From Minisyncoccota bacterium (lineage in GTDB: Bacteria > Patescibacteriota > Minisyncoccia > Phycocordibacterales > Phycocordibacteraceae), in assembly GCA_022842945.1 (NCBI GenBank), contig JALHOO010000001.1, positions 157,830 to 221,829 on the forward strand: a DNA stretch of 64,000 nt. Direction: 5' to 3'. The position numbers were made by a program, and so were the translations under genes. Shown one piece after another: positions 1-62,866 of the stretch (the first letter of the stretch is position 1; every line of letters begins with the position of its first letter). The notes beneath the pieces were generated by a model, which saw only the letters and a list, made by a program, of their open reading frames with translations, ran no database searches and had not been told where the DNA came from.

Positions 1-897
1 CACTGGCTTCCAACCGAGATCTCTATGCAGAGAGATATCGAGCAGTGGAAGAGCACGAGTGTGCTTACCGACGACGAGCGCAAGGCGTTCGAGACCGTGC
101 TCGGCTTCTTCACCACAGCAGACTCCATTGCCGCGAACAACGTAGTGCTCGCGCTCTACAAGCACATCACGAGTCCTGAGTGCCGCATGTACCTTCTTCG
201 CCAGGGATACGAAGAGGCTATTCACACGCACGCATACCAGTACATTGTTGAGTCTCTTGGTATGGATGAGTCCAAGATCTTCAACATGTACCGAGAAGTA
301 GAGAGCATCTACAATAAGGACAACATGATTCTCCGCTTAAACGAGGGAATCTTCGCAGATGACTTCAAAACCGGAACACTTGAAGCAGACCAGCTCTTCG
401 TTGAGAACCTCTGCGTGTTCTCCCTCATCATGGAAGGTATCTTCTTCTACTCATCCTTTGCGGTTATGTTTGGCTTCCAGCGCCAGAACAAGCTCACCGG
501 AGCTGCAGAGCAGATTCAGTACATCATGCGTGACGAGTCCCAGCACCTGAACTTTGGTGTGAACATGATTAACACCATCAAGGAGGAGCAGCCTGAGATT
601 TGGAGCGAAGAGTTCCAGCAGCGCATCATTGATCTTGTGAAGCGCGCGGTTGTGCTTGAGTACACGTTCGCAACAGAAGTATTCCCACGCGGTATCTTCG
701 GTATGAACGCAGACGGTTTCAAGCAGTACATCGAGCACATCGCAGATCGCCGTCTCGCAACTGTTGGTCTTCCGGCGCAGTACAACGTAGAGAACCCGTT
801 CCCATGGATGGGGGAGGCGGTGGATCTCAACAAGGAGAAGAACTTCTTCGAGACCCGCGTAACGGAGTACAAGACGGGAGGACAGTTGAGCTGGTAA
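1..897 (+). CDS. nrdB: Ribonucleoside-diphosphate reductase beta subunit (class I, R2), 5'-truncated by window edge
   Basis: The frame is open back to base 1. Di-iron ligand motifs are present: EEAIHTHAYQYI and MRDESQHLNFG (two ExxH). The C-terminal tail is typical of R2. Confidence 0.85.
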   Translation, partial: HWLPTEISMQRDIEQWKSTSVLTDDERKAFETVLGFFTTADSIAANNVVLALYKHITSPECRMYLLRQGYEEAIHTHAYQYIVESLGMDESKIFNMYREVESIYNKDNMILRLNEGIFADDFKTGTLEADQLFVENLCVFSLIMEGIFFYSSFAVMFGFQRQNKLTGAAEQIQYIMRDESQHLNFGVNMINTIKEEQPEIWSEEFQQRIIDLVKRAVVLEYTFATEVFPRGIFGMNADGFKQYIEHIADRRLATVGLPAQYNVENPFPWMGEAVDLNKEKNFFETRVTEYKTGGQLSW

Positions 898-915
898 TAC
901 GAGAAATCAGTCCCT

Positions 916-943
916 AAGAAAGCCGCTTACAAGCGGCTTTCTT
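916..943. terminator. Intrinsic terminator hairpin after nrdB
   Basis: aagaaagccgc-ttacaa-gcggctttctt, a 10-11 bp GC stem followed by T-rich sequence. Confidence 0.6.
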
Positions 944-1023
944 GCGTATATCGAATTTCTCTTTTCTTGACACTCCTATCCCTGTCGATATACTATATAT
1001 TATTACTATAGTATAGTACTTAT

Positions 1024-1245
1024 ATGACTGTTATTACTGTACCTGTATCGAGCGAGCAGGAGCTTTTCATAAAGAATCTGGTGAAGAGCGGTCGCGCTGC
1101 AAACAAGGCGCATGCGGTCCGGATGGGTATTACGCTACTTGCGCAGGAAGATGCGATGTTGCGCATCGCGAAAGCAGAGCGCGAAATAGCTGAAGGTCAG
1201 GTCCTGAAGGGTGATCTGAGGAAACTTGCGAAGCTTGTTGACTAG
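1024..1245 (+). CDS. ParD/RHH-type antitoxin (type II TA)
   Basis: 73 aa; the EQELFIKNLVKSGRAANKAHAVRMGITLLAQED segment resembles the COG3609 ParD pattern. Its stop lies 2 nt before the downstream toxin start. Confidence 0.6.
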   Translation: MTVITVPVSSEQELFIKNLVKSGRAANKAHAVRMGITLLAQEDAMLRIAKAEREIAEGQVLKGDLRKLAKLVD

Positions 1246-1247
1246 CT

Positions 1248-1514
1248 ATGCTTGAGGTCGAGTACGCACCGGAGTTCATTCGTACCTGGAAAAAACTCCC
1301 TGAAGACCTGCAAGAAGAAGCAATCGATCGTATCGAACTGTTCAAAGATCGCACGCATCATGCGATGCTCAAGGTACATAAGCTCTCCGGAAGACAGAAG
1401 GGAAAGTGGAGCTTTTCAGTCAATTTCAAATATCGGATTATCTTTATGTACGCTCGTGGTGATAAGAACACTGCGCAGCTACTCGATATAGGCGATCATT
1501 CTGTCTACGAATAG
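1248..1514 (+). CDS. RelE/ParE-superfamily toxin
   Basis: 88 aa; the C-terminal KLSGRQKGKWSFSVNFKYRIIFMYARGDKNTAQLLDIGDHSVYE matches the RelE/ParE signature, and it is tightly coupled to the upstream antitoxin. Confidence 0.6.
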   Translation: MLEVEYAPEFIRTWKKLPEDLQEEAIDRIELFKDRTHHAMLKVHKLSGRQKGKWSFSVNFKYRIIFMYARGDKNTAQLLDIGDHSVYE

Positions 1515-1580
1515 CACATAATGAATAAGAGCTTCTTTGAGACTGGTGGCCAGCTGAGCTGGCACGTTTCATCCAGTCAC

Positions 1581-1607
1581 ACAAAAGCCGCATTGAGCGG
1601 CTTTTGT
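1581..1607. terminator. Bidirectional terminator between the TA pair and the Y1 transposase-like gene
   Basis: acaaaagccgc-attga-gcggcttttgt, nearly the same stem sequence as the hairpin at 916-943. Confidence 0.55.
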
Positions 1608-1610
1608 CAT

Positions 1611-2285
1611 TTAGCTCGTAACCCACAACCTTCTATTTGATTTTGCATAGAGCGTTCGAAAGTCGTGGATCACATCGTCTACAGACGAGGTGTTCTGCAC
1701 CATCTCTTCAAGAAGCGCTGAGGAGAGAATGGACCCTTCGGCTCTTCGTACGTCCTCGTAGTCATGCAGGCTTGTGAAAGGATAGGCAACGATGTTTCTG
1801 TGCACGTCACTCCGCCTGCTCTCTTCAAAGAGCTGAGACGGGTTGCCGTGTATGTAGTTAACAACGCGCTTCAGGGGTGTAGTCTTGCCTACGTGCCTTG
1901 ATTTGAACCTTCCAGAGAACAGCGTGCCTGAACGCCGGTACTTCGCATTGAAGTACATGATGTAGGCGGTACCGAGCTTGCGCATGAACAGGCTAATACC
2001 GCCCGGGGCACGTTCCCTTAGAAGAAGGTCGTAGTGTGTGGGCATGAGTGCATACGCGCCAATATCAACCAAGCACTCGTCGCGCAACTGCTCGAACACC
2101 GCTTCGAATGCTGTGTCCTCATTTCGTACAGAGCGCACCGGCAAACTCATCCGATTGTTGCAGGTGTATAGAAGCATCTGAAATCTCAGATAGTCTTTGT
2201 GCTCCATAAACACCTGGCGCATATCGATGCCACGGTTGTAGCAGTGATACCACTCGTCCGGGAGAAAACGCTGAGGCTTTGACAT
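1611..2285 (-). mobile_element. IS200/IS605-like Y1 (HUH) transposase family protein, RAYT-like, possibly inactivated
   Basis: The motifs YHCYNRG...MRQVF, GTLFSGRFKS and VVNYIHGNP resemble Transposase_17/COG1943. The HuH position reads T-H-Y-D rather than H-u-H. The ORF extends to 2351, but an internal Met at 2285 avoids overlap with the pilin gene. Confidence 0.55.
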
Positions 2286-2289
2286 GGGT

Positions 2290-2775
2290 CTAACGGCTAA
2301 GACAGAACTCCTCGCTATCAGGCAAGGCAGACTCTGCAGCTCCTGGTGCACACACGGTTATGCGGCTTGCTACAGGATCCTGTCTAACGGTGTACTTCGT
2401 TGAGTACTCTTCAGTGCACGCAAGCGTTGTGCAGTTGTTCTCTCCGGTGGAAGGATCAACGGGTACTTCTGAGAGATAGGTTGGAACAAGGCAGCGACGC
2501 AGGTCATAGGAGTCAGAGCTTATCTCTTTCGCTACTTCCGTTGGAAGGGGATCACACGAGGCACTTGCGAAGAGTCCGCGAGTATCTGCCATGCGGTTAC
2601 TTACTGCGTTCAGAATGGTAGCTACATTCGCCTGGCGCTGTGCGTTTCTCGCTTGGGCGAACTGTCTTAACGGGTTAACCGCAACGAGGACAATAGTGGT
2701 GAGTATGGCAAGCATACCGATAACTACGAGTATCTCTATAAGCGTAAATCCGCGCACGGGGTGCTTTCTTTGCAT
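2290..2775 (-). CDS. Type IV (pre)pilin, class III signal peptide
   Basis: KHPVRGFTLIEILVVIGMLAIL is a prepilin cleavage/N-methylation motif. It is the last gene of the pilus operon. Confidence 0.8.
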   Translation of the reverse strand: MQRKHPVRGFTLIEILVVIGMLAILTTIVLVAVNPLRQFAQARNAQRQANVATILNAVSNRMADTRGLFASASCDPLPTEVAKEISSDSYDLRRCLVPTYLSEVPVDPSTGENNCTTLACTEEYSTKYTVRQDPVASRITVCAPGAAESALPDSEEFCLSR

Positions 2776-2849
2776 GGATGGTAGATAAGTAGGTAATGCG
2801 CACCCCTGAAGCATAGAAAGAACCTCCTCATCGAAATCTCAAGGATAGT

Positions 2850-3257
2850 TCAAATTTCCCTGACCGATTCAACCCTAAAGGGAGGTCGCAAACCCGGCAG
2901 TTCTTCAAGGAACACTTCCAATCTTGTTATGGAGTCTTTCTGTTCTCCTTGAACAATAATGCGTAGTAGGGAATCGATCTCAACAATGGATTCAATAGTG
3001 CACAACGCGTCTACAGAAAGATCTACAACCTCTCCGTCTTCGTGCGGACGGTATGTGAGGTCTGTAGAAAGCTCGAACAAGGCTACCTGCATACACGAGT
3101 ACGCATGCGCGCGACTCATAAGAGCGTCTTCGTTCCAAAGGGCTGAAAGCCGCAGAAGATAGGTGCGTGTAGCAGACGAGAAGGCAAGAGCCGTAAGTAC
3201 AGCGCACAGAAATAGGGTGGTGATGAGTGCGGCGTATCCGCGAGATAGGTGTGTCAT
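2850..3257 (-). CDS. Minor pilin / pseudopilin-like protein
   Basis: N-terminal SRGYAALITTLFLCAVLTALAF is a prepilin-like hydrophobic segment; 4-nt overlap with the upstream gene. Confidence 0.55.
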   Translation of the reverse strand: MTHLSRGYAALITTLFLCAVLTALAFSSATRTYLLRLSALWNEDALMSRAHAYSCMQVALFELSTDLTYRPHEDGEVVDLSVDALCTIESIVEIDSLLRIIVQGEQKDSITRLEVFLEELPGLRPPFRVESVREI

Positions 3258-3616
3258 GGAGCGAGTAGGTAGATTCGGTCGCTAAAATCTCGCTTTCCAA
3301 ACTCTCCATGGACGAGAGAAAATCGTATATCTATATACGCTGGATTCTCTAATTCCTCATACAACACACTGAAGTCTTGTACGATATAGGGAGTGAGAGA
3401 CTGCATGTTTTCTGCGTCCGGAACCTTTCCGTGCATAACAGCCTGGCGCGCCTTCTTCAGAAGAAACACCCCTTCAAACTCTATGTGTGAGAGCTCGTTC
3501 ATACGTTCGCTCGATGCGCCTATAGCAAACGCACCCATGCCAGAGCCGGTTATAAGCAGGGAGAATAAACCAAGGTACACAAGTGTCTCAACAAGACTGA
3601 ATCCTCGGTGTGTCAT
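3254..3616 (-). CDS. Minor pilin-like protein
   Basis: MTHRGFSLVETLVYLGLFSLL is a canonical G-F-S-L-V-E prepilin motif. Confidence 0.7.
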   Translation of the reverse strand: MTHRGFSLVETLVYLGLFSLLITGSGMGAFAIGASSERMNELSHIEFEGVFLLKKARQAVMHGKVPDAENMQSLTPYIVQDFSVLYEELENPAYIDIRFSLVHGEFGKRDFSDRIYLLAP

Positions 3617-4995: not shown

Positions 4996-5396
4996 GGTAG
5001 AGGGGTTGTGTCTTCAATACGGCCATGGGGAGAGACACTGATGCGATAGTCAGAGCGTGTGAGAATACGCTCCTCAACCACTTGATTGGAAAAGAGAAAC
5101 TCTGTATCTCCCTCTGTCGCTACGACTCTTTGAAATGGATAGTCTGAGTCTTCACGCCTCTCAGAGTACGAAGGGCCATAGAACACAACGAACTCATCGT
5201 TGTGTACCAGGACACCACTCTCGCTCGCGCTACTCCTTGCATACAGAAGTGCCGTTACCAGGGTCTCTCTGTCGCTTTGTATAGAAAGCCTGTTATAGCT
5301 CGCTACGGGTGCAATCGCTGCTATCCCAATCACGAACGCACTCACACCAAGTACCACGAGTACTTCTATGAGCGAGAATCCTCGTACGCTAGCCAT
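4992..5396 (-). CDS. Minor pilin-like protein
   Basis: MASVRGFSLIEVLVVLGVSAFVIG is a prepilin motif. Confidence 0.7.
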   Translation of the reverse strand: MASVRGFSLIEVLVVLGVSAFVIGIAAIAPVASYNRLSIQSDRETLVTALLYARSSASESGVLVHNDEFVVFYGPSYSERREDSDYPFQRVVATEGDTEFLFSNQVVEERILTRSDYRISVSPHGRIEDTTPLP

Positions 5397-6453
5397 GCAG
5401 ATCCTGCGTTATTTGATACACCGGCGTAATAATCGCAAGCGCAATAAACCCAACCAAGATACCCATGAGGATCATGAGTACCGGCTCAATAAGGGTGGCA
5501 AGACGAGCGCACACTGCATCAAACTCCTCTTCGTAGTATTCAGAGAGAAGTGTAAGAGCGGAAGGTAGGGTACCGGTGCGTTCTCCCGCCTCAATCATCT
5601 GTGTAAAGAGAACGGGGAAGCACCGTTCGGAGTCCGCTAGAGACGTCGAAAGACGCTCCCCAGAAAGCACCTGTCCTTTGGCAGTAGTAAGCTTAAGACC
5701 GAACACTCGATTCCCACACACTGCTTCAGACAGCTCAAGTGCACGGATGATACCTGATCCGCTATGAAGAAGAGTGGAGAGCGTCCGAGAGAGGTGCGTT
5801 AAGAGATACGTGCGCACCAGGGTACGGAGAAGAGGAATACCCAGTATGCTGGTGTCTAGGAACAGACGTACCTGTGGCTTCTTGTGCAGATACCACGCAC
5901 CACCACCTATAAAGGGAAGTACCAGAAGAAATACCCATCCATGCGAAGCTATCGCATCAGATACGAATATAAGGGTACGTGTTGAAAGGGGAAGTGCAGA
6001 ATCAAACCCACGGAACAAAGGAATAATCTTCGGAAACGCATACAGACTTAAGAATGCCGAGATAGCGAGCGTAGAGCACACAATAATCGCAGGATAGATG
6101 AGCGCACTTATGAGCCGCCTCTGAAGGCTCGTTTGCTTCTTCAAGACAACCGCAAGCTGTGCGAGAGAACGAGGCAGAGTGCCCGTCTCTTCGCCAACCT
6201 CAATCATGGCGATAGTCAGGGGACGCACAACGCGAGGGAATTGTCCCAGTGCGCTTGATAGGCTGCTTCCTTCTGAAACGGAAGACACAAGAGACTGCAG
6301 AATATACAGGCTACTCTTTGAGCGCGCTGAGTCCCGCAACAATGAGAGTGCTTCAAGTATCGGTATGCCGGCGGAAAGGTACACAGAGAGTCTGCGTGCG
6401 AACAGTATCTGTTCCTTGAGTCCAAAGATAAGAAACCGTGGTGTGAGGTTACG
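5389..6453 (-). CDS. pilC: Type IV pilus assembly platform protein PilC (GspF family)
   Basis: Polytopic membrane protein with two GspF-like repeats. The ORF extends to 6477; Met at 6453 gives a 4-nt overlap with pilB. Confidence 0.8.
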   Translation of the reverse strand, partial: RNLTPRFLIFGLKEQILFARRLSVYLSAGIPILEALSLLRDSARSKSSLYILQSLVSSVSEGSSLSSALGQFPRVVRPLTIAMIEVGEETGTLPRSLAQLAVVLKKQTSLQRRLISALIYPAIIVCSTLAISAFLSLYAFPKIIPLFRGFDSALPLSTRTLIFVSDAIASHGWVFLLVLPFIGGGAWYLHKKPQVRLFLDTSILGIPLLRTLVRTYLLTHLSRTLSTLLHSGSGIIRALELSEAVCGNRVFGLKLTTAKGQVLSGERLSTSLADSERCFPVLFTQMIEAGERTGTLPSALTLLSEYYEEEFDAVCARLATLIEPVLMILMGILVGFIALAIITPVYQITQDLHG

Positions 6454-7660
6454 CATACGAAGCACGTGCAATCTCATCTATGGAAGTGATGCCCTTACGC
6501 ACCTTCTCGAGCCCGTCCCCAAGCAGAGGCACCATACCGCGAGAAAGAGCGAGGGCACGTAGGGTGTCCTGTCCTGTTCCCGTCTCTATGCTGGTGCGAA
6601 TAATCTCATCAACTGCAAACACTTCAAACACACCCACGCGCCCTCGGTATCCCGTGCCTCTGCACGCAATACACCCGTGTCCCTTAAAGAACACCTCAAG
6701 TCCACTAATCTTCTCTGGCACGAACTTCCGTATCCGCTCGAGCACATGTTCTTCAGGCGTATACGGTTCCTTACACTCGCTACACATCCGTCGCACGAGC
6801 CTCTGCGCTATAACAAGGCGCACTGTGCTCGCTATGAGGTACGGCTCGATACCGATATCTTGAAGACGAGGCACTGCAGACACTGCGTCGTTAGTATGGA
6901 GTGTTGAGAGCACGAGGTGTCCGGTTAGTGCGGCATGCACCGCAAGACGTGCCGTCTCCTCGTCTCGAATCTCGCCAACCATAATAATGTCCGGATCCTG
7001 GCGAAGTACACTCCGTAGTCCATTAGCAAAGGTGAGTCCGCGCTCTGTGTTCACGGGTATCTGGTTGGTACCCGGAAGGGAATACTCTATAGGGTCCTCG
7101 AGCGTAACGATGGATCGTGTCTCGCTGTCGAGCATCTGTAGGAGTGCATAGAGAAGGGTAGTTTTGCCGCTTCCGGTGGGTCCTGTCGCAAGAATCATCC
7201 CACTTGATTGCTCAAGTGCCCGCGTAAGTAAAAGCTGATGCCCGTTCCTGCATCCGAGAGAACGTAGAGATTTCTTCTCGCCTCCAGGTACGAGGATTCT
7301 CAGTACCGCGTTCTCTCCGTAATAGGTTGGAGCAATGGAAACACGCACATCGTTCTCGTGGCCGTCGGGGTCAATAAAGGTAAAGCGTCCATCCTGTGCG
7401 GTGAAGTGTTCGTCCGTGCGAAGTCCAGAGAGTATCTTTATGCGAGACAACACTGCAGGATGCGTGTGAGCGGGAAGTGTGCGCACATCCTGCAACAGTC
7501 CATCAATCCGTATACGCACCCGCACACCCTCCCGGTCTGGATTGAGATGTATGTCAGACGCCCCTGCCTCAAGAGCCTCCTGCAGAACAGTATTGATAAC
7601 CGTTACGGCAGACGGAGTACTTAGTATCTCCTGTATAGATTGCGTGCGGGTATCTTGCAT
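6449..7660 (-). CDS. pilB: Type IV pilus assembly ATPase PilB (GspE family), short form
   Basis: Walker A ILATGPTGSGKTTLLYAL, a CxxC...CxxC tetracysteine, and a GspE fold. Confidence 0.85.
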   Translation of the reverse strand: MQDTRTQSIQEILSTPSAVTVINTVLQEALEAGASDIHLNPDREGVRVRIRIDGLLQDVRTLPAHTHPAVLSRIKILSGLRTDEHFTAQDGRFTFIDPDGHENDVRVSIAPTYYGENAVLRILVPGGEKKSLRSLGCRNGHQLLLTRALEQSSGMILATGPTGSGKTTLLYALLQMLDSETRSIVTLEDPIEYSLPGTNQIPVNTERGLTFANGLRSVLRQDPDIIMVGEIRDEETARLAVHAALTGHLVLSTLHTNDAVSAVPRLQDIGIEPYLIASTVRLVIAQRLVRRMCSECKEPYTPEEHVLERIRKFVPEKISGLEVFFKGHGCIACRGTGYRGRVGVFEVFAVDEIIRTSIETGTGQDTLRALALSRGMVPLLGDGLEKVRKGITSIDEIARASYA

Positions 7661-7770
7661 GAGGGAAGAGTACTCAGAGAGAGCTCAAGGAAACCTCAAG
7701 TGCGAATAGGGAGAATATAAAGAAGCCTCCGGATCTTTCGATCCGGAGGCCCTGTAGTTGTTGAGGAAGC

Positions 7771-9174
7771 CTATGACTCAGGCTTCCAGTGTTCGAGCAT
7801 CTGTACGAGAAGCGGTACCGGTACGCCGGTAGCTGCGCCCTTGAAGAGGCCGTCCTTGCCGGTGCCTTCCATACCGGTTCCGGCGATGTCCAGATGGGCG
7901 AAGATGCCGTTCATGTCTTTTGCCGCGTCCGCGAGGAACGCGGCAGCAACACAGGACCCGCCCATTTTGCCGCCGTTCGGTTGCACGTTCGCGATGTATG
8001 CGACCGAGCTCTCGAGATCCGCCTCGTACCCTTCGTGGGGCATGTGCCAGACATCGTTCCCGGTCTCCTCACCCCAGATCTTCATGTGGTCGACGAAGCT
8101 GTCGTCCGAGCAGAAGAAGCCGGTGTGGCGGTTCCCGAGCGCGATGCGGATCGCGCCGGTAAGCGTAGCCACCGTAACCAGAAGGTGTGGATCGTGTTCG
8201 TTGAGGGCATGGGTGATACCGTCACGAAGCACGAGACGTCCTTCCGCGTCCGTGTTCAGAATCTCCACGGTCTTGCCGTCGAGACCCTTGATCACGTCCA
8301 TGGTGCGATAGCAGTCGGACGAGACGAGATTCTCGGCCGCCGGAACGATGGCAACGGCGTTAACGGGAAGCTTGAGCTTCGCCGCGATAAGAACAGCCAT
8401 GATGGCCGCAGCGCCGCCGCCCATATCCTTCTGCATGCCCTGGATTGCGCCAGAGAGCTTCAGGTCAGTGCCGCCGATGTCGAGCGTGACGCCCTTGCCG
8501 ACGATGGCCACATCCGTAACGGACGAATCTGGTTTCCCATCGTAAGAGAGCTCGATCAGGCAGGGCTTGTTCTTCGCCCCTTTCCCGACCGCACACAGTA
8601 AGCCATAGCCGTCCTTCTCCAGCTCCGCATAGTGTTTGACCACAACGCGAACGTTCTCGATTCCTTCAGCGAGCTTTTCAACGCGCCGGCCGAACTCCTC
8701 TGGATAGAGGTAGTTCGAGGGTTCGTCCACCAGTTCGCGGCAGGTGTTCACGCCGACGCCGATAATTGCGCCGGTACGCAGACCTGCTGCTTCGTCATCT
8801 CTGCAGTTGATGACATAGAAGTTCTCGACGCCAGAGTACCCCTTGCTCGGCATTTTGTACTTGCCGGAGCGATATGCCGCGAGCATCAGGTTCATGGCAT
8901 AGAGGCGTCCTTCAGAGAACAGGTCGCTGTTCTCGTCGAACGGCAGCACGTCAAGATAATCGAGTACGAGATCCGAAAGTTTGAGTCGGTGCGCCTCCTG
9001 CATGACCCCGCGCGCGATCGATGCGATACGAGCAGGATTGGTGAGCGTCCCGTCGATGCCGTACACCAGGATTTGCCTGGCCTCCGTCTTCGAGAGATAG
9101 GAAGTGTCGATGTCCGGGTCCAAACGAACCTGCACTGCGTGTGCGGGTGCTGATTCGGCTATATGAATCTTCAT
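7771..9174 (-). CDS. pepA: Leucyl aminopeptidase (M17)
   Basis: NTDAEGRL motif; 467 aa. Confidence 0.85.
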   Translation of the reverse strand: MKIHIAESAPAHAVQVRLDPDIDTSYLSKTEARQILVYGIDGTLTNPARIASIARGVMQEAHRLKLSDLVLDYLDVLPFDENSDLFSEGRLYAMNLMLAAYRSGKYKMPSKGYSGVENFYVINCRDDEAAGLRTGAIIGVGVNTCRELVDEPSNYLYPEEFGRRVEKLAEGIENVRVVVKHYAELEKDGYGLLCAVGKGAKNKPCLIELSYDGKPDSSVTDVAIVGKGVTLDIGGTDLKLSGAIQGMQKDMGGGAAAIMAVLIAAKLKLPVNAVAIVPAAENLVSSDCYRTMDVIKGLDGKTVEILNTDAEGRLVLRDGITHALNEHDPHLLVTVATLTGAIRIALGNRHTGFFCSDDSFVDHMKIWGEETGNDVWHMPHEGYEADLESSVAYIANVQPNGGKMGGSCVAAAFLADAAKDMNGIFAHLDIAGTGMEGTGKDGLFKGAATGVPVPLLVQMLEHWKPES

Positions 9175-9744: not shown

Positions 9745-10356
9745 ATGCCAGTTATTGCAGTAGTAGCTCTTATGAGCTTTCTGTTTCTACCGGGTAGCGC
9801 AGGGGCACCGGCACATGCGGAGACGATTTCCGCGCCGACTGTTACCAGCGGGATGGCTGAAGAGCCTTCCAAACGTCTGGCTACCTCACGTGAGGTAGCC
9901 GATACCTACCAGGTTAGTATGACCGCTTACAATGCCGTTCCCGGACAGACAGATGACAACCCATTTGTCACCGCGAGCGGTATGGCCTCGAATCACGAGG
10001 TTGTGGCTGCGCGATCACGCGATATGGCGGCTGAACTCCCGTTCGGCACCGTCATACGCATAGAGCGCTCGACGAAGGACACCCCTTCGTGCCGTTTCGG
10101 CGAAGTCGAGCACTTGATCGGGTACCGCATTATTGCGGACACGATGCACCAGCGCTGGGTCCATAAAATTGATGTCCTCTTCGATATCAATGATACGGTC
10201 CCGGTAGAAGGTCGCGAAGTGAACCCGGCCATTGCGCTTGGGCACTGTGAAAGCGTAACAGCTACGGTTGTAGGAAAGGTGGATATGAAAAACCCACCAA
10301 CTACTCAGGCTGAGCTGGCTGCGATGTTCGCTACGCCGTCATACGCACTGCGTTAA
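9745..10356 (+). CDS. Secreted 3D-domain (MltA/YuiC/RlpA-like) cell-wall protein
   Basis: A signal peptide, and MTAYNAVPGQTDDNPFVTASG...GTVIRIE...IADTM...IDVLFD typical of a 3D domain. Confidence 0.7.
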   Translation: MPVIAVVALMSFLFLPGSAGAPAHAETISAPTVTSGMAEEPSKRLATSREVADTYQVSMTAYNAVPGQTDDNPFVTASGMASNHEVVAARSRDMAAELPFGTVIRIERSTKDTPSCRFGEVEHLIGYRIIADTMHQRWVHKIDVLFDINDTVPVEGREVNPAIALGHCESVTATVVGKVDMKNPPTTQAELAAMFATPSYALR

Positions 10357-18620: not shown

Positions 18621-18694
18621 TGCTCCGCGGGCAGGATTCGAACCTGCGACCAATCGATTAACAGTCGACTGCTCTACCGCTGAGCTACCGCGGA
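18621..18694 (-). tRNA. tRNA-Asn (anticodon GTT)
   Basis: Cloverleaf folded by hand: acceptor TCCGCGG/CCGCGGA, anticodon loop CTGTTAA, T-loop GGTTCGAATCC. CCA is not encoded. Confidence 0.8.
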
Positions 18695-41003: not shown

Positions 41004-41075
41004 TGACCTCACGGGGAATCGAACCCCGATTTGATCCGTGAGAGGGATCTGTCCTAACCGTTAGACGATGAGGCC
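41004..41075 (-). tRNA. tRNA-Glu (anticodon CTC)
   Basis: Acceptor GGCCTCA/TGAGGTC, anticodon loop CTCTCAC, T-loop GGTTCGATTCC. CCA is not encoded. Confidence 0.7.
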
Positions 41076-60421: not shown

Positions 60422-60516
60422 CGGCGAGATGGCAGAGTGGCTTAATGTTACGGCCCTCGATGGCCGTAGGGGAAGCTCAGACTTCTCTCGCAGGTTCGAA
60501 TCCTGCTCTTGCCGCC
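60422..60516 (+). tRNA. tRNA-Ser (class II, long variable arm; anticodon probably CGA)
   Basis: Acceptor GGCGAGA/TCTTGCC, G73 discriminator, encoded CCA, T-loop GGTTCGAATCC. My hand fold gives an atypical 8-nt anticodon loop. Confidence 0.7.
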
Positions 60517-60542: not shown

Positions 60543-60617
60543 GGGTGGGTAGCTCAGCGGTAGAGCGCTGGCACTCTGTGTCAGAGGTCGCGGGTTCGAA
60601 TCTCGCCTCTCCCTCCA
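60543..60617 (+). tRNA. tRNA-Arg (anticodon TCT by hand fold)
   Basis: 75 nt with encoded CCA and T-loop GGTTCGAATCT. The anticodon stem CTGGC/GTCAG has a loop ACTCTGT, with C at position 33 (unusual). Confidence 0.6.
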
Positions 60618-61277: not shown

Positions 61278-61486
61278 CCTAAACTTAACCATTTCCCCAG
61301 GAGCCAAAAGTGATTTGGGGATAGAGGTCACTTCAGCGGTAACTGGCGCCAGTTAGCTTTACTAAAGAAACTATCTATACCAACAGTCACTCGAGGCGAT
61401 CTCTTAATGGGGAATAAGGTTTCGGAAGGCAACCTAAGACGTACGGGTAGGAATCGAACCAGAAGTACTTTCGTGGCTTTGTAAGA

Positions 61487-61520
61487 CATACTTGGTACAA
61501 TATACGCAGTACATCTAGAG
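61487..61520 (+). repeat. Direct repeat copy A (GTACAATATA...GCAGTACATCTAG)
   Basis: catacTTgGTACAATATAcgcaGTACAtCTAGag, similar to copy B at 62826-62866. Confidence 0.5.
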
Positions 61521-62654: not shown

Positions 62655-62825
62655 GTCACTAATGGCAAATAAGCGCACGGATAAAATTTAGTAGCCACTG
62701 GAAGTTGGAAGAATTATTTTGCCGTCCTTCGTAAAGGGAAGTAGGGGTACAAAAGTGTGCACTAGGTGACATAGATCTGATTCAAAGAATTTAGCCCAGA
62801 AGAGGGGCTCAGGGCTTTCTTATAT

Positions 62826-62866
62826 ATACTTCGTACAATATATCTTTTGCGTAGTACAATCTAGCA
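62826..62866 (+). repeat. Direct repeat copy B
   Basis: atacTTcGTACAATATAtcttttGCGTAGTACAatCTAGc, with 17 of 18 identities in the core plus a shared GTACA..TCTAG tail. Confidence 0.5.

Follow-up and report, generated by a model that had tools for sequence, protein, structure and literature searches.

How did a toxin–antitoxin (TA) pair, two nearly identical hairpins, and a transposase-like gene come to lie side by side at the end of a pilus operon? We addressed this question in a 64,000-nucleotide stretch of a Minisyncoccota bacterium genome (assembly GCA_022842945.1, contig JALHOO010000001.1, positions 157,830 to 221,829), referred to here as the window. The patch lies between nrdB, the gene for the ribonucleotide reductase small subunit, and a prepilin-type gene. 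Our reading, which we hold to be probable as a whole, is that the TA pair entered by insertion–duplication at a hotspot at the nrdB end and that the adjoining Y1 protein—a HUH protein resembling the repetitive extragenic palindrome (REP)-associated tyrosine transposases (RAYTs), or TnpAREP—is a separate matter: a fixed, selected, and domesticated protein that probably no longer transposes. The TA pair and the duplication are the ordinary part of this reading. The Y1 protein is the more useful result, as it leads to a family of RAYT-like proteins that is widespread in Patescibacteria and whose cognate hairpin is sharply defined. The features of the locus are as follows (window coordinates):

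1–897, plus strand: the 3' 298 codons of nrdB (PF00268, 255 bits).
829–943, plus strand: repeat copy 1, comprising the last ~69 nt of functional nrdB, an 18-nt spacer, and hairpin A (direct-repeat family D6 and alignments).
916–943: hairpin A, AAGAAAGCCGC-ttacaa-GCGGCTTTCTT, the present nrdB terminator (−19.7 kcal/mol, z = −5.6).
967–1015, plus strand: TA promoter, with TTGACA at 967–972, a 16-nt spacer, and TATACT at 989–994 (11/12 match to the sigma-70 consensus).
989–997 and 1007–1015: candidate operator, a 9-bp inverted repeat (TATACTATA / TATAGTATA) that overlaps the TA promoter.
1024–1245, plus strand: antitoxin, 73 aa, probably ParD-like, of the ribbon-helix-helix type (TIGR02606 and ParD-structure matches).
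1248–1514, plus strand: toxin, 88 aa, RelE/ParE superfamily, best match HigB-like (profiles and solved HigB structures).
1518–1580, plus strand: first part of repeat copy 2, a putative remnant, in decay, of the original 3' end of nrdB after its displacement (alignments).
1581–1607: hairpin B, ACAAAAGCCGC-attga-GCGGCTTTTGT, the terminator between nrdB and the Y1 gene (−17.5 kcal/mol, z = −4.7).
1611–2285, minus strand: Y1 HUH protein, 224 aa, class 2 (TnpAREP/RAYT-like), encoded by the last gene of the pilus operon (PF01797, 28.4 bits).
2290–2814, minus strand: prepilin-type gene (N_methyl matches), with its stop codon 4 nt before the Y1 start.
5389–6477 and 6449–7660: continuation of the pilus operon, T2SSF and T2SSE (domain matches).

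A first-pass annotation had placed the TA genes and hairpins at these coordinates, had named nrdB and a pilin gene as their neighbors, and had called the pair ParD/RelE-like and the transposase-like protein RAYT-like; the locations and the flanking genes proved correct, and the family assignments agree with the profile and fold searches described below. The window opens inside nrdB, whose transcription converges with that of the pilus operon and the Y1 gene and which is 92–93% identical to the nrdB of two relatives, L002 and L048 (loci of relatives are numbered with L and Y1 homologs with P). The antitoxin and toxin open reading frames (ORFs) are 2 nt apart. The Y1 ORF was originally called at 1611–2351 on the minus strand, and we place its real start at the ATG at 2285 because all homologs begin there.

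What are the twin hairpins? They had been proposed to be either REP-like or terminators that resemble each other by chance. We find that they are terminators, as the second proposal held, and that their resemblance is best explained by common descent through duplication and not by chance; the REP-like proposal is not supported. The core AAAGCCGC-N6-GCGGCTTT occupies 919–940 and AAAGCCGC-N5-GCGGCTTT occupies 1584–1604, each within a full stem of 11 bp (916–943 and 1581–1607). The likeness extends past the hairpins: 829–855, inside nrdB, matches 1518–1544, just after the toxin stop codon (family D6), and an alignment of 829–943 with 1518–1607 gives a common AAGAnCTTCTTnGAGAC, then GGnGGnCAGnTGAGCTGG after a 21-nt gap, and then the hairpin. 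In translation, 1518–1580 reads NKSFFET..GGQLSW vs. NKEKNFFETRVTEYKTGGQLSW for the real NrdB C terminus, with a 21-nt deletion and the stop codon lost. The best non-self match of this remnant in the window is the nrdB end, at a score reached by 0 of 2,000 shuffles. Compared with the genuine nrdB end of L002, the orthologous remnant in L003 is identical at 55 of 57 positions and the remnant in L001 at 55 of 60. One higher-scoring local alignment of the window remnant, to its own reverse complement, was set aside, as CCAGCTGAGCTGG is nearly palindromic.

The general pattern AAAGCCGC-N4-8-GCGGCTTT has exactly two matches in the 64 kb and none in 100 shuffles, and the window-wide list of perfect hairpins holds otherwise unrelated terminators. 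Among 137 loci of relatives, AAAGCCGC-type hairpins were confined to the orthologous position, apart from a single unrelated match. From these alignments, the twin hairpins appear to be two copies of one segment that runs from the last ~70 nt of nrdB through a spacer and the terminator of that gene. Hairpin B, which folds well on both strands, appears to be the ancestral bidirectional terminator between two convergent genes, because the empty sites of L002 and L126 have this single hairpin between both stop codons; it would now serve the TA pair and Y1. Hairpin A appears to be the second copy, which would have arrived with the replacement nrdB end. Such a simple history for the twin hairpins removes a false REP lead.

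We also looked at the stem of hairpin B across lineages. The stem AAAGCCGC(G) at the 3' end of the Y1 gene is unchanged in the window (1581–1607) and in L001, L002, L003, L126, and L048, in contrast to the loop and spacer, which are free to vary. The terminators that L127 and L134 have at this position are unrelated to it.

What occupies the nrdB/Y1 junction in relatives? In L002 (Y1 80% identical), the site is uninterrupted, so that the nrdB stop codon is followed by 20 nt, one hairpin (ACAAAAGCCGC-acaac-GCGGCTTTTGT), and the Y1 stop codon; L126 and L127 likewise have empty sites with one hairpin. L003 and L004 (Y1 88% identical) carry the same TA pair and a less decayed nrdB remnant, and L048 has a window-type TA pair with no nrdB remnant. 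In L001 (Y1 95% identical), a Fic/DOC-family gene replaces the TA pair (2761–3558; PF02661, 73 bits); it has its own promoter region and is followed by an nrdB-end remnant and the hairpin, and the Fic/DOC-family gene is cut off by the end of the contig. L128 has a HigB-like TA pair that is more distant and lies in the opposite orientation. As relatives show empty, same-TA, Fic, and other-TA states, the nrdB/Y1 junction appears to be a hotspot for toxin-type cargo, with two kinds of TA pair and a Fic gene. The locus would be a small hotspot where recombination recurs at a gene's 3' end, beside presumed DNA-uptake pilus genes, with toxin-type cargo turning over there in the ultra-small genomes of Patescibacteria.

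Is the cargo in the window a known kind of TA system? The toxin scores just under the cutoff of the HigB-like profile PF05015 (25.3 bits vs. 27 bits, E = 2e-5) and just under that of ParE (21.9 bits, E = 3e-4), and it matches RelE/StbE (TIGR02385) with E = 1.7e-5. PF05015 is matched by 28 of 38 aligned toxin homologs. Of the 75 homologs found, all those with source names are Patescibacteria or Parcubacteria, and the profile of the toxin family matches solved HigB, YoeB, and RelE structures (HigB with E about 1e-3, namely 7e-4). The antitoxin matches the ParD model TIGR02606 weakly (E = 9e-5; 22.5 bits vs. a 46-bit cutoff), and a profile of five antitoxins matches the solved ParD structures 7YCS and 3KXE weakly but consistently (E = 7e-4 to 2e-3). 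Like the type II TA systems parDE, higBA, and relBE, the pair comprises two small genes close together, of which the antitoxin gene comes first; the toxin has a RelE/ParE fold, the antitoxin is probably ParD-like, and a palindromic candidate operator covers the −10 box. The pair differs from these systems in being a hybrid, with the toxin nearest HigB and the antitoxin nearest ParD, and in having proteins just below Pfam cutoffs.

The same promoter and operator travel with TA homologs in L048, L131, and L132, and the operon is predicted to be autoregulated, given a palindromic operator over the promoter that is conserved in homologous cassettes. TA cassettes ~70% identical lie in unrelated loci: the one in L131 is flanked by rpsB and prfA, and the one in L132 by genes for a peptidase M17 and a methyltransferase. 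We take the pair to be a mobile type II module of the ParD/RelE(HigB) type. The homologs in L131 and L132 have no flanking duplications, repeats, or hairpins, which rules out an insertion signature shared by all copies of the module. A peptidase M17 gene also borders the pilus operon in the window (7771–9174), and the one in L132 (83–1579) stands beside a 68%-identical TA cassette with T4SS-pilin-like genes near, which may be coincidence.

How might the module have arrived? We propose that the TA module, a self-contained unit that brings its promoter and operator with it, was placed in the 3' end of nrdB through an insertion–duplication. The left side would then hold the functional nrdB end and terminator hairpin A, and the right side would hold the displaced last ~70 nt of the original nrdB, decaying, followed by the original terminator hairpin B. 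The likely route is one crossover within nrdB homology, through either Campbell-style integration of circular or linear DNA carrying the nrdB end, the terminator, and the TA pair, or homology-facilitated illegitimate recombination after DNA uptake. The outcome is similar to integration of islands or phages at the 3' ends of tRNA or protein genes, where the gene end is replaced, and to insertion–duplication by single crossover, in that the nrdB end and terminator are directly repeated around the cargo and the functional gene keeps an intact end as the displaced end decays. It differs in that the 690-bp insert has no integrase or recognizable att core, in that the cargo is a TA pair only, and in that the mechanism here is inferred.

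What is the Y1 protein? It matches PF01797 at 28.4 bits, above the 23-bit cutoff, and contains GTLFSGRFKS, YIHGNP, and THYD. Residues Y144-I-H-G-N148-P149 form the Y---NP context of the catalytic tyrosine, and Y---NP is the signature of class 2 (TnpAREP) proteins (Quentin et al. 2018, PMC6006769). The profile of the Y1 family aligns the HuH and Y motifs to Escherichia coli TnpAREP (PDB 4ER8), and the AlphaFold2 model of the protein (pLDDT 85) has 4ER8 as its top Foldseek match (E = 6e-6), with the transposases of ISDra2 and IS608 next. A single-sequence phmmer search against PDB sequences gave no match; only the family profile and the fold search matched. The score against NCBIfam NF047646 is 26.7 bits, below the 80-bit cutoff. 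At the HuH position stands H84-Y-D86, and Y144 and N148 are kept, as the first-pass annotation had read from the motifs. The window protein thus lacks the intact HuH; H-u-H and the tyrosine are intact in 111 of 118 close homologs and in 145 of 150 family representatives. H-Y-D is common to the window, P0001 (95% identical), and P0002 (88%), and P0003 (79%) is still HYH, a distribution that points to H-Y-D as a derived state and not the mark of a decaying copy.

The resemblance to RAYTs lies in the PF01797 core, the Y---NP signature, the structural match to 4ER8, and a single window copy with vertical, syntenic inheritance; the wider family, moreover, is flanked by cognate hairpins, each paralog having its own. 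The window protein departs from RAYTs in having HuD for HuH, in the low NF047646 score (26.7 vs. 80), in its 75-aa helical C-terminal extension, in being fused to the pilus operon, and in the lack of cognate hairpins, as only 4 nt separate it from the pilin stop codon and the downstream hairpin is the nrdB terminator. The family hairpin itself (AGG-N5-CCT, with a stem of 7 to 10 bp) departs from the REP pattern in having no GTAG-type 5' tetranucleotide and in its low density, with 26 stray copies in ~0.8 Mb. With TnpA of the insertion sequences (ISs) IS200/IS605, the protein shares the Y1 HUH fold, and most family members form a hairpin–gene–hairpin unit of ~720 bp that resembles minimal IS200-like elements. 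In contrast to IS200/IS605, no identical multicopy elements were seen (paralogs in one genome are 40–64% identical), and the window protein has Y---NP in place of Y---Q, 224 aa vs. ~140–150 aa, and no end hairpins.

How widespread is the Y1 family, and how constant is its hairpin? All named members are Patescibacteria (Kaiserbacteria, Paceibacterota, and others), and the family comprises 1,481 clusters at 50% identity (E ≤ 1e-30). In almost every member outside the pilus operon, a hairpin lies ~30–55 nt before the start codon, and often another lies at or just after the stop codon. The stem is variable, 7–10 bp, and covarying, with an invariant AGG...CCT around a 5-nt loop; examples in L005–L125 are L015 (9952–9972 and 10646–10666), L029 (9918, 9967, and 10680), and L017 (2369 and 3088). 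RNAalifold, applied to the −70 to −8 regions of 82 nonredundant units with no preselection for hairpins, yielded an 8-pair hairpin with the inner pairs A-U, G-C, and G-C in 78–80 of the 82 regions and with 26–42 double compensatory changes in the outer pairs. About 80 of 82 other family members have a cognate upstream hairpin, which a strict detector requiring a perfect 6-bp stem under-counts (59 of 89 units). AGG...CCT closes 101 of 112 perfect hairpins with a 7-bp stem and 5-nt loop at gene ends, and, when both hairpins are present, their loops are identical in 20 pairs and reverse-complemented in 15. A total of 896 kb contains 104 family-type hairpins no more than 300 nt from a Y1 gene and 26 at other places, vs. 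~2 expected. Each hairpin-bearing paralog within a genome has its own stem, and the hairpin behavior of the family appears RAYT-like rather than active-IS-like. Our literature searches found no description of a RAYT or REP-associated transposase for Patescibacteria or the candidate phyla radiation (CPR), nor of a family with an AGG-N5-CCT hairpin in this group, and a survey of Y1 proteins from 2018 (PMC6006769), which covered complete genomes of bacteria, names no candidate phyla, Parcubacteria, or "Candidatus" taxa.

Several further patterns recur around family genes. An extended −10-like box (TGnTATAAT or GCGCTATAAT) abuts the 3' arm of the upstream hairpin or follows it by a few nt (L051, L071, L016, L020, L107, L111, and others). 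Because the hairpin sits on the Y1 gene's own promoter, this arrangement suggests autoregulation by the Y1 protein. A DnaA-box-like TTATCC[AC]CA lies 50–110 nt upstream of 12 of 92 Y1 genes, where ~1.6 are expected (e.g., L015, L093, L099, L106, L028, and L092), and a TTACCAGCC-like motif comes after the downstream hairpin in 9 of 89 units, where ~0.3 are expected (e.g., L014, L020, L075, L093, L096, and L098). These motifs may represent the conserved ends of elements or sites preferred as targets. Other recurrent palindromes in these Patescibacteria loci are AATGATGGAT-atcgtaa-GTCCATCATT, ATGTAGGAC-N-GTCCTACAT, and AGGGAAGTC-n-GACTTCCCT (L087 at 1995 and 12466; L011 at 11667, 12179, and 12364; L087 at 12937, L029 at 13545, and L039 at 12085; L087 at 7892 and 8558 and L070 at 7842); the first type flanks a more distant Y1 paralog in L011. 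The 64-kb window holds two AGG/GG-type hairpins, one of them inside an ORF, vs. 0.44 expected. A lone family-type hairpin, ACGAAGG-acacc-CCTTCGT at 10072–10090, inside the ORF at 9745–10356, may be there by chance.

Where do Y1 proteins of the pilus operon stand in this family? The order from pilus genes to Y1 is conserved in L001–L004, L048, L049, L126, L127, L128, and L134, and Y1 proteins that follow a pilin (the window, P0001–P0005, P0007, P0011, and P0017) are monophyletic in a neighbor-joining tree. P0004, from L128, is basal in this clade, has HYH and Y intact, and is flanked on both sides by the perfect hairpin TATAAGG-cccgg-CCTTATA. The other clade members have no cognate hairpins, and several have replaced catalytic residues: H86D in the window lineage, H84R in P0005 and P0017, and H84Q with Y144F in P0007 and P0011. 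The window lineage has also replaced the near-invariant family positions N83, D135, Y137, W157, and K158.

Around its intact pilus-linked Y1 gene, L128 carries five copies, intact or degenerate, of TATAAGG-cccgg-CCTTATA (6315–7738). One of them directly follows the nrdB stop codon, and the HigB-like TA pair lies between the second and third. The cluster looks like local REP-like proliferation beside an intact enzyme.

Is the pilus-linked Y1 gene decaying? The gene with HYD has a dN/dS of 0.044–0.051 at dS 0.5–2.6, compared with 0.043–0.067 for nrdB and 0.07–0.16 for the pilin gene. In the tyrosine-less pair L048/L126, pN is 0.089, whereas pS is saturated at 0.81. All pilus-linked relatives keep a full-length Y1 ORF, even those at 45–50% identity. 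These values point to purifying selection as strong as that on nrdB. It follows that, of the earlier description of the protein as domesticated or inactivated, "domesticated" fits and "inactivated pseudogene" does not. Selection on the tyrosine-less genes further implies that the gene is kept for a protein function that, in that branch at least, cannot be HUH catalysis.

In the history we propose, a RAYT/TnpAREP-like gene was fixed in the terminal position of a type IV pilus-like operon, and the pilus-linked clade would first have lost its hairpins and then changed its catalytic residues (H86D in the window). The protein most likely no longer moves DNA and is kept for a host function, which probably uses the single-strand or hairpin DNA binding of the fold. 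One syntenic locus would thus offer a natural series, from intact enzyme with hairpins through hairpin loss to loss of a metal ligand or nucleophile, with selection throughout—a series suited to the question of what hosts gain from domesticated Y1 proteins. That the role is tied to the pilus or DNA-uptake operon is speculation from gene order only. More ambitiously, and only tentatively, we suggest that Patescibacteria have an undescribed RAYT-like system (~1,500 clusters with their own covarying, promoter-abutting AGG-N5-CCT hairpins), of which one copy, in one clade, was captured at the end of a type IV pilus or competence-like operon, shed its hairpins and catalytic residues, and was exapted as a noncatalytic DNA-binding protein with a DNA-uptake or pilus function; we rate this as possible but doubtful. 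If true, it would be a case of a transposase turned to DNA uptake or pilus function.

Several points weigh against insertion–duplication beside a domesticated, nontransposing Y1. No donor or circular form was seen, and the remnant in L001 may stem from either the same event as that in the window or an independent one. The neighbor-joining tree carries no support values. The search for dispersed hairpins in this genome covered the 64 kb of the window only; the genome collection holds no close relative (its best Y1 match is 47% identical). Aspartate can coordinate Mg or Mn, and an H-Y-D protein that keeps Y144 and N148 could therefore have retained its activity and cleave DNA. The stem of hairpin B shows no compensatory change and stays constant even among lineages with saturated synonymous sites, a constancy that exceeds the strict need of a terminator; it could reflect terminator constraint or a ligand for the Y1 protein, which could use the stem.

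The last two points meet in the idea that Y1(HYD) is still an active HUH enzyme, with aspartate as metal ligand, retargeted to the AAAGCCGC hairpin and aiding the turnover of cargo. The retained Y144 and N148, the strong purifying selection, the invariant stem, and the variable cargo at the nrdB/Y1 junction would all suit such an enzyme. However, sister lineages without the tyrosine or with H84R/Q are equally conserved, with or without cargo; N83, D135, Y137, W157, and K158 have been replaced along with H86; and what the junctions display is homology to nrdB rather than cleavage sites next to hairpins. We consider this idea unlikely.

Could the twin hairpins instead be REP-like or IS200-type ends, with the TA pair as cargo of a nonautonomous element mobilized in trans by Y1? 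The arrangement is suggestive, in that near-identical hairpins bracket the TA pair beside a Y1 gene and that, in L128, a related TA pair lies between family-type hairpins beside a catalytically intact Y1. Yet each twin hairpin comes after ~70 nt of coding sequence from nrdB, either genuine or a remnant, the empty site already holds the hairpin, and the two copies in the window have no dispersed counterparts in the relatives' loci. The AAAGCCGC hairpins also fit the AGG-N5-CCT family consensus in neither stem nor loop, and TA homologs elsewhere lack such hairpins and flanking repeats. Mobilization of this kind is very improbable. Still less credible is that Y1 is a dead transposase relic drifting to loss and the patch junk between two operons, as the altered HuH motif and missing flanking hairpins might suggest, given nrdB-like dN/dS over the whole dS range, the low pN of the tyrosine-less pair, and full-length ORFs in all pilus-linked relatives.

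Elsewhere in the window, which has a G+C content of 52.8%, the sole Rfam matches are tRNA genes at 18623–18694, 41004–41075, 60423–60514, and 60543–60614. A 30-nt direct repeat, 83% identical between its copies at 61475–61504 and 62813–62842, ends in TACAATATA upstream of two genes and is promoter-like.

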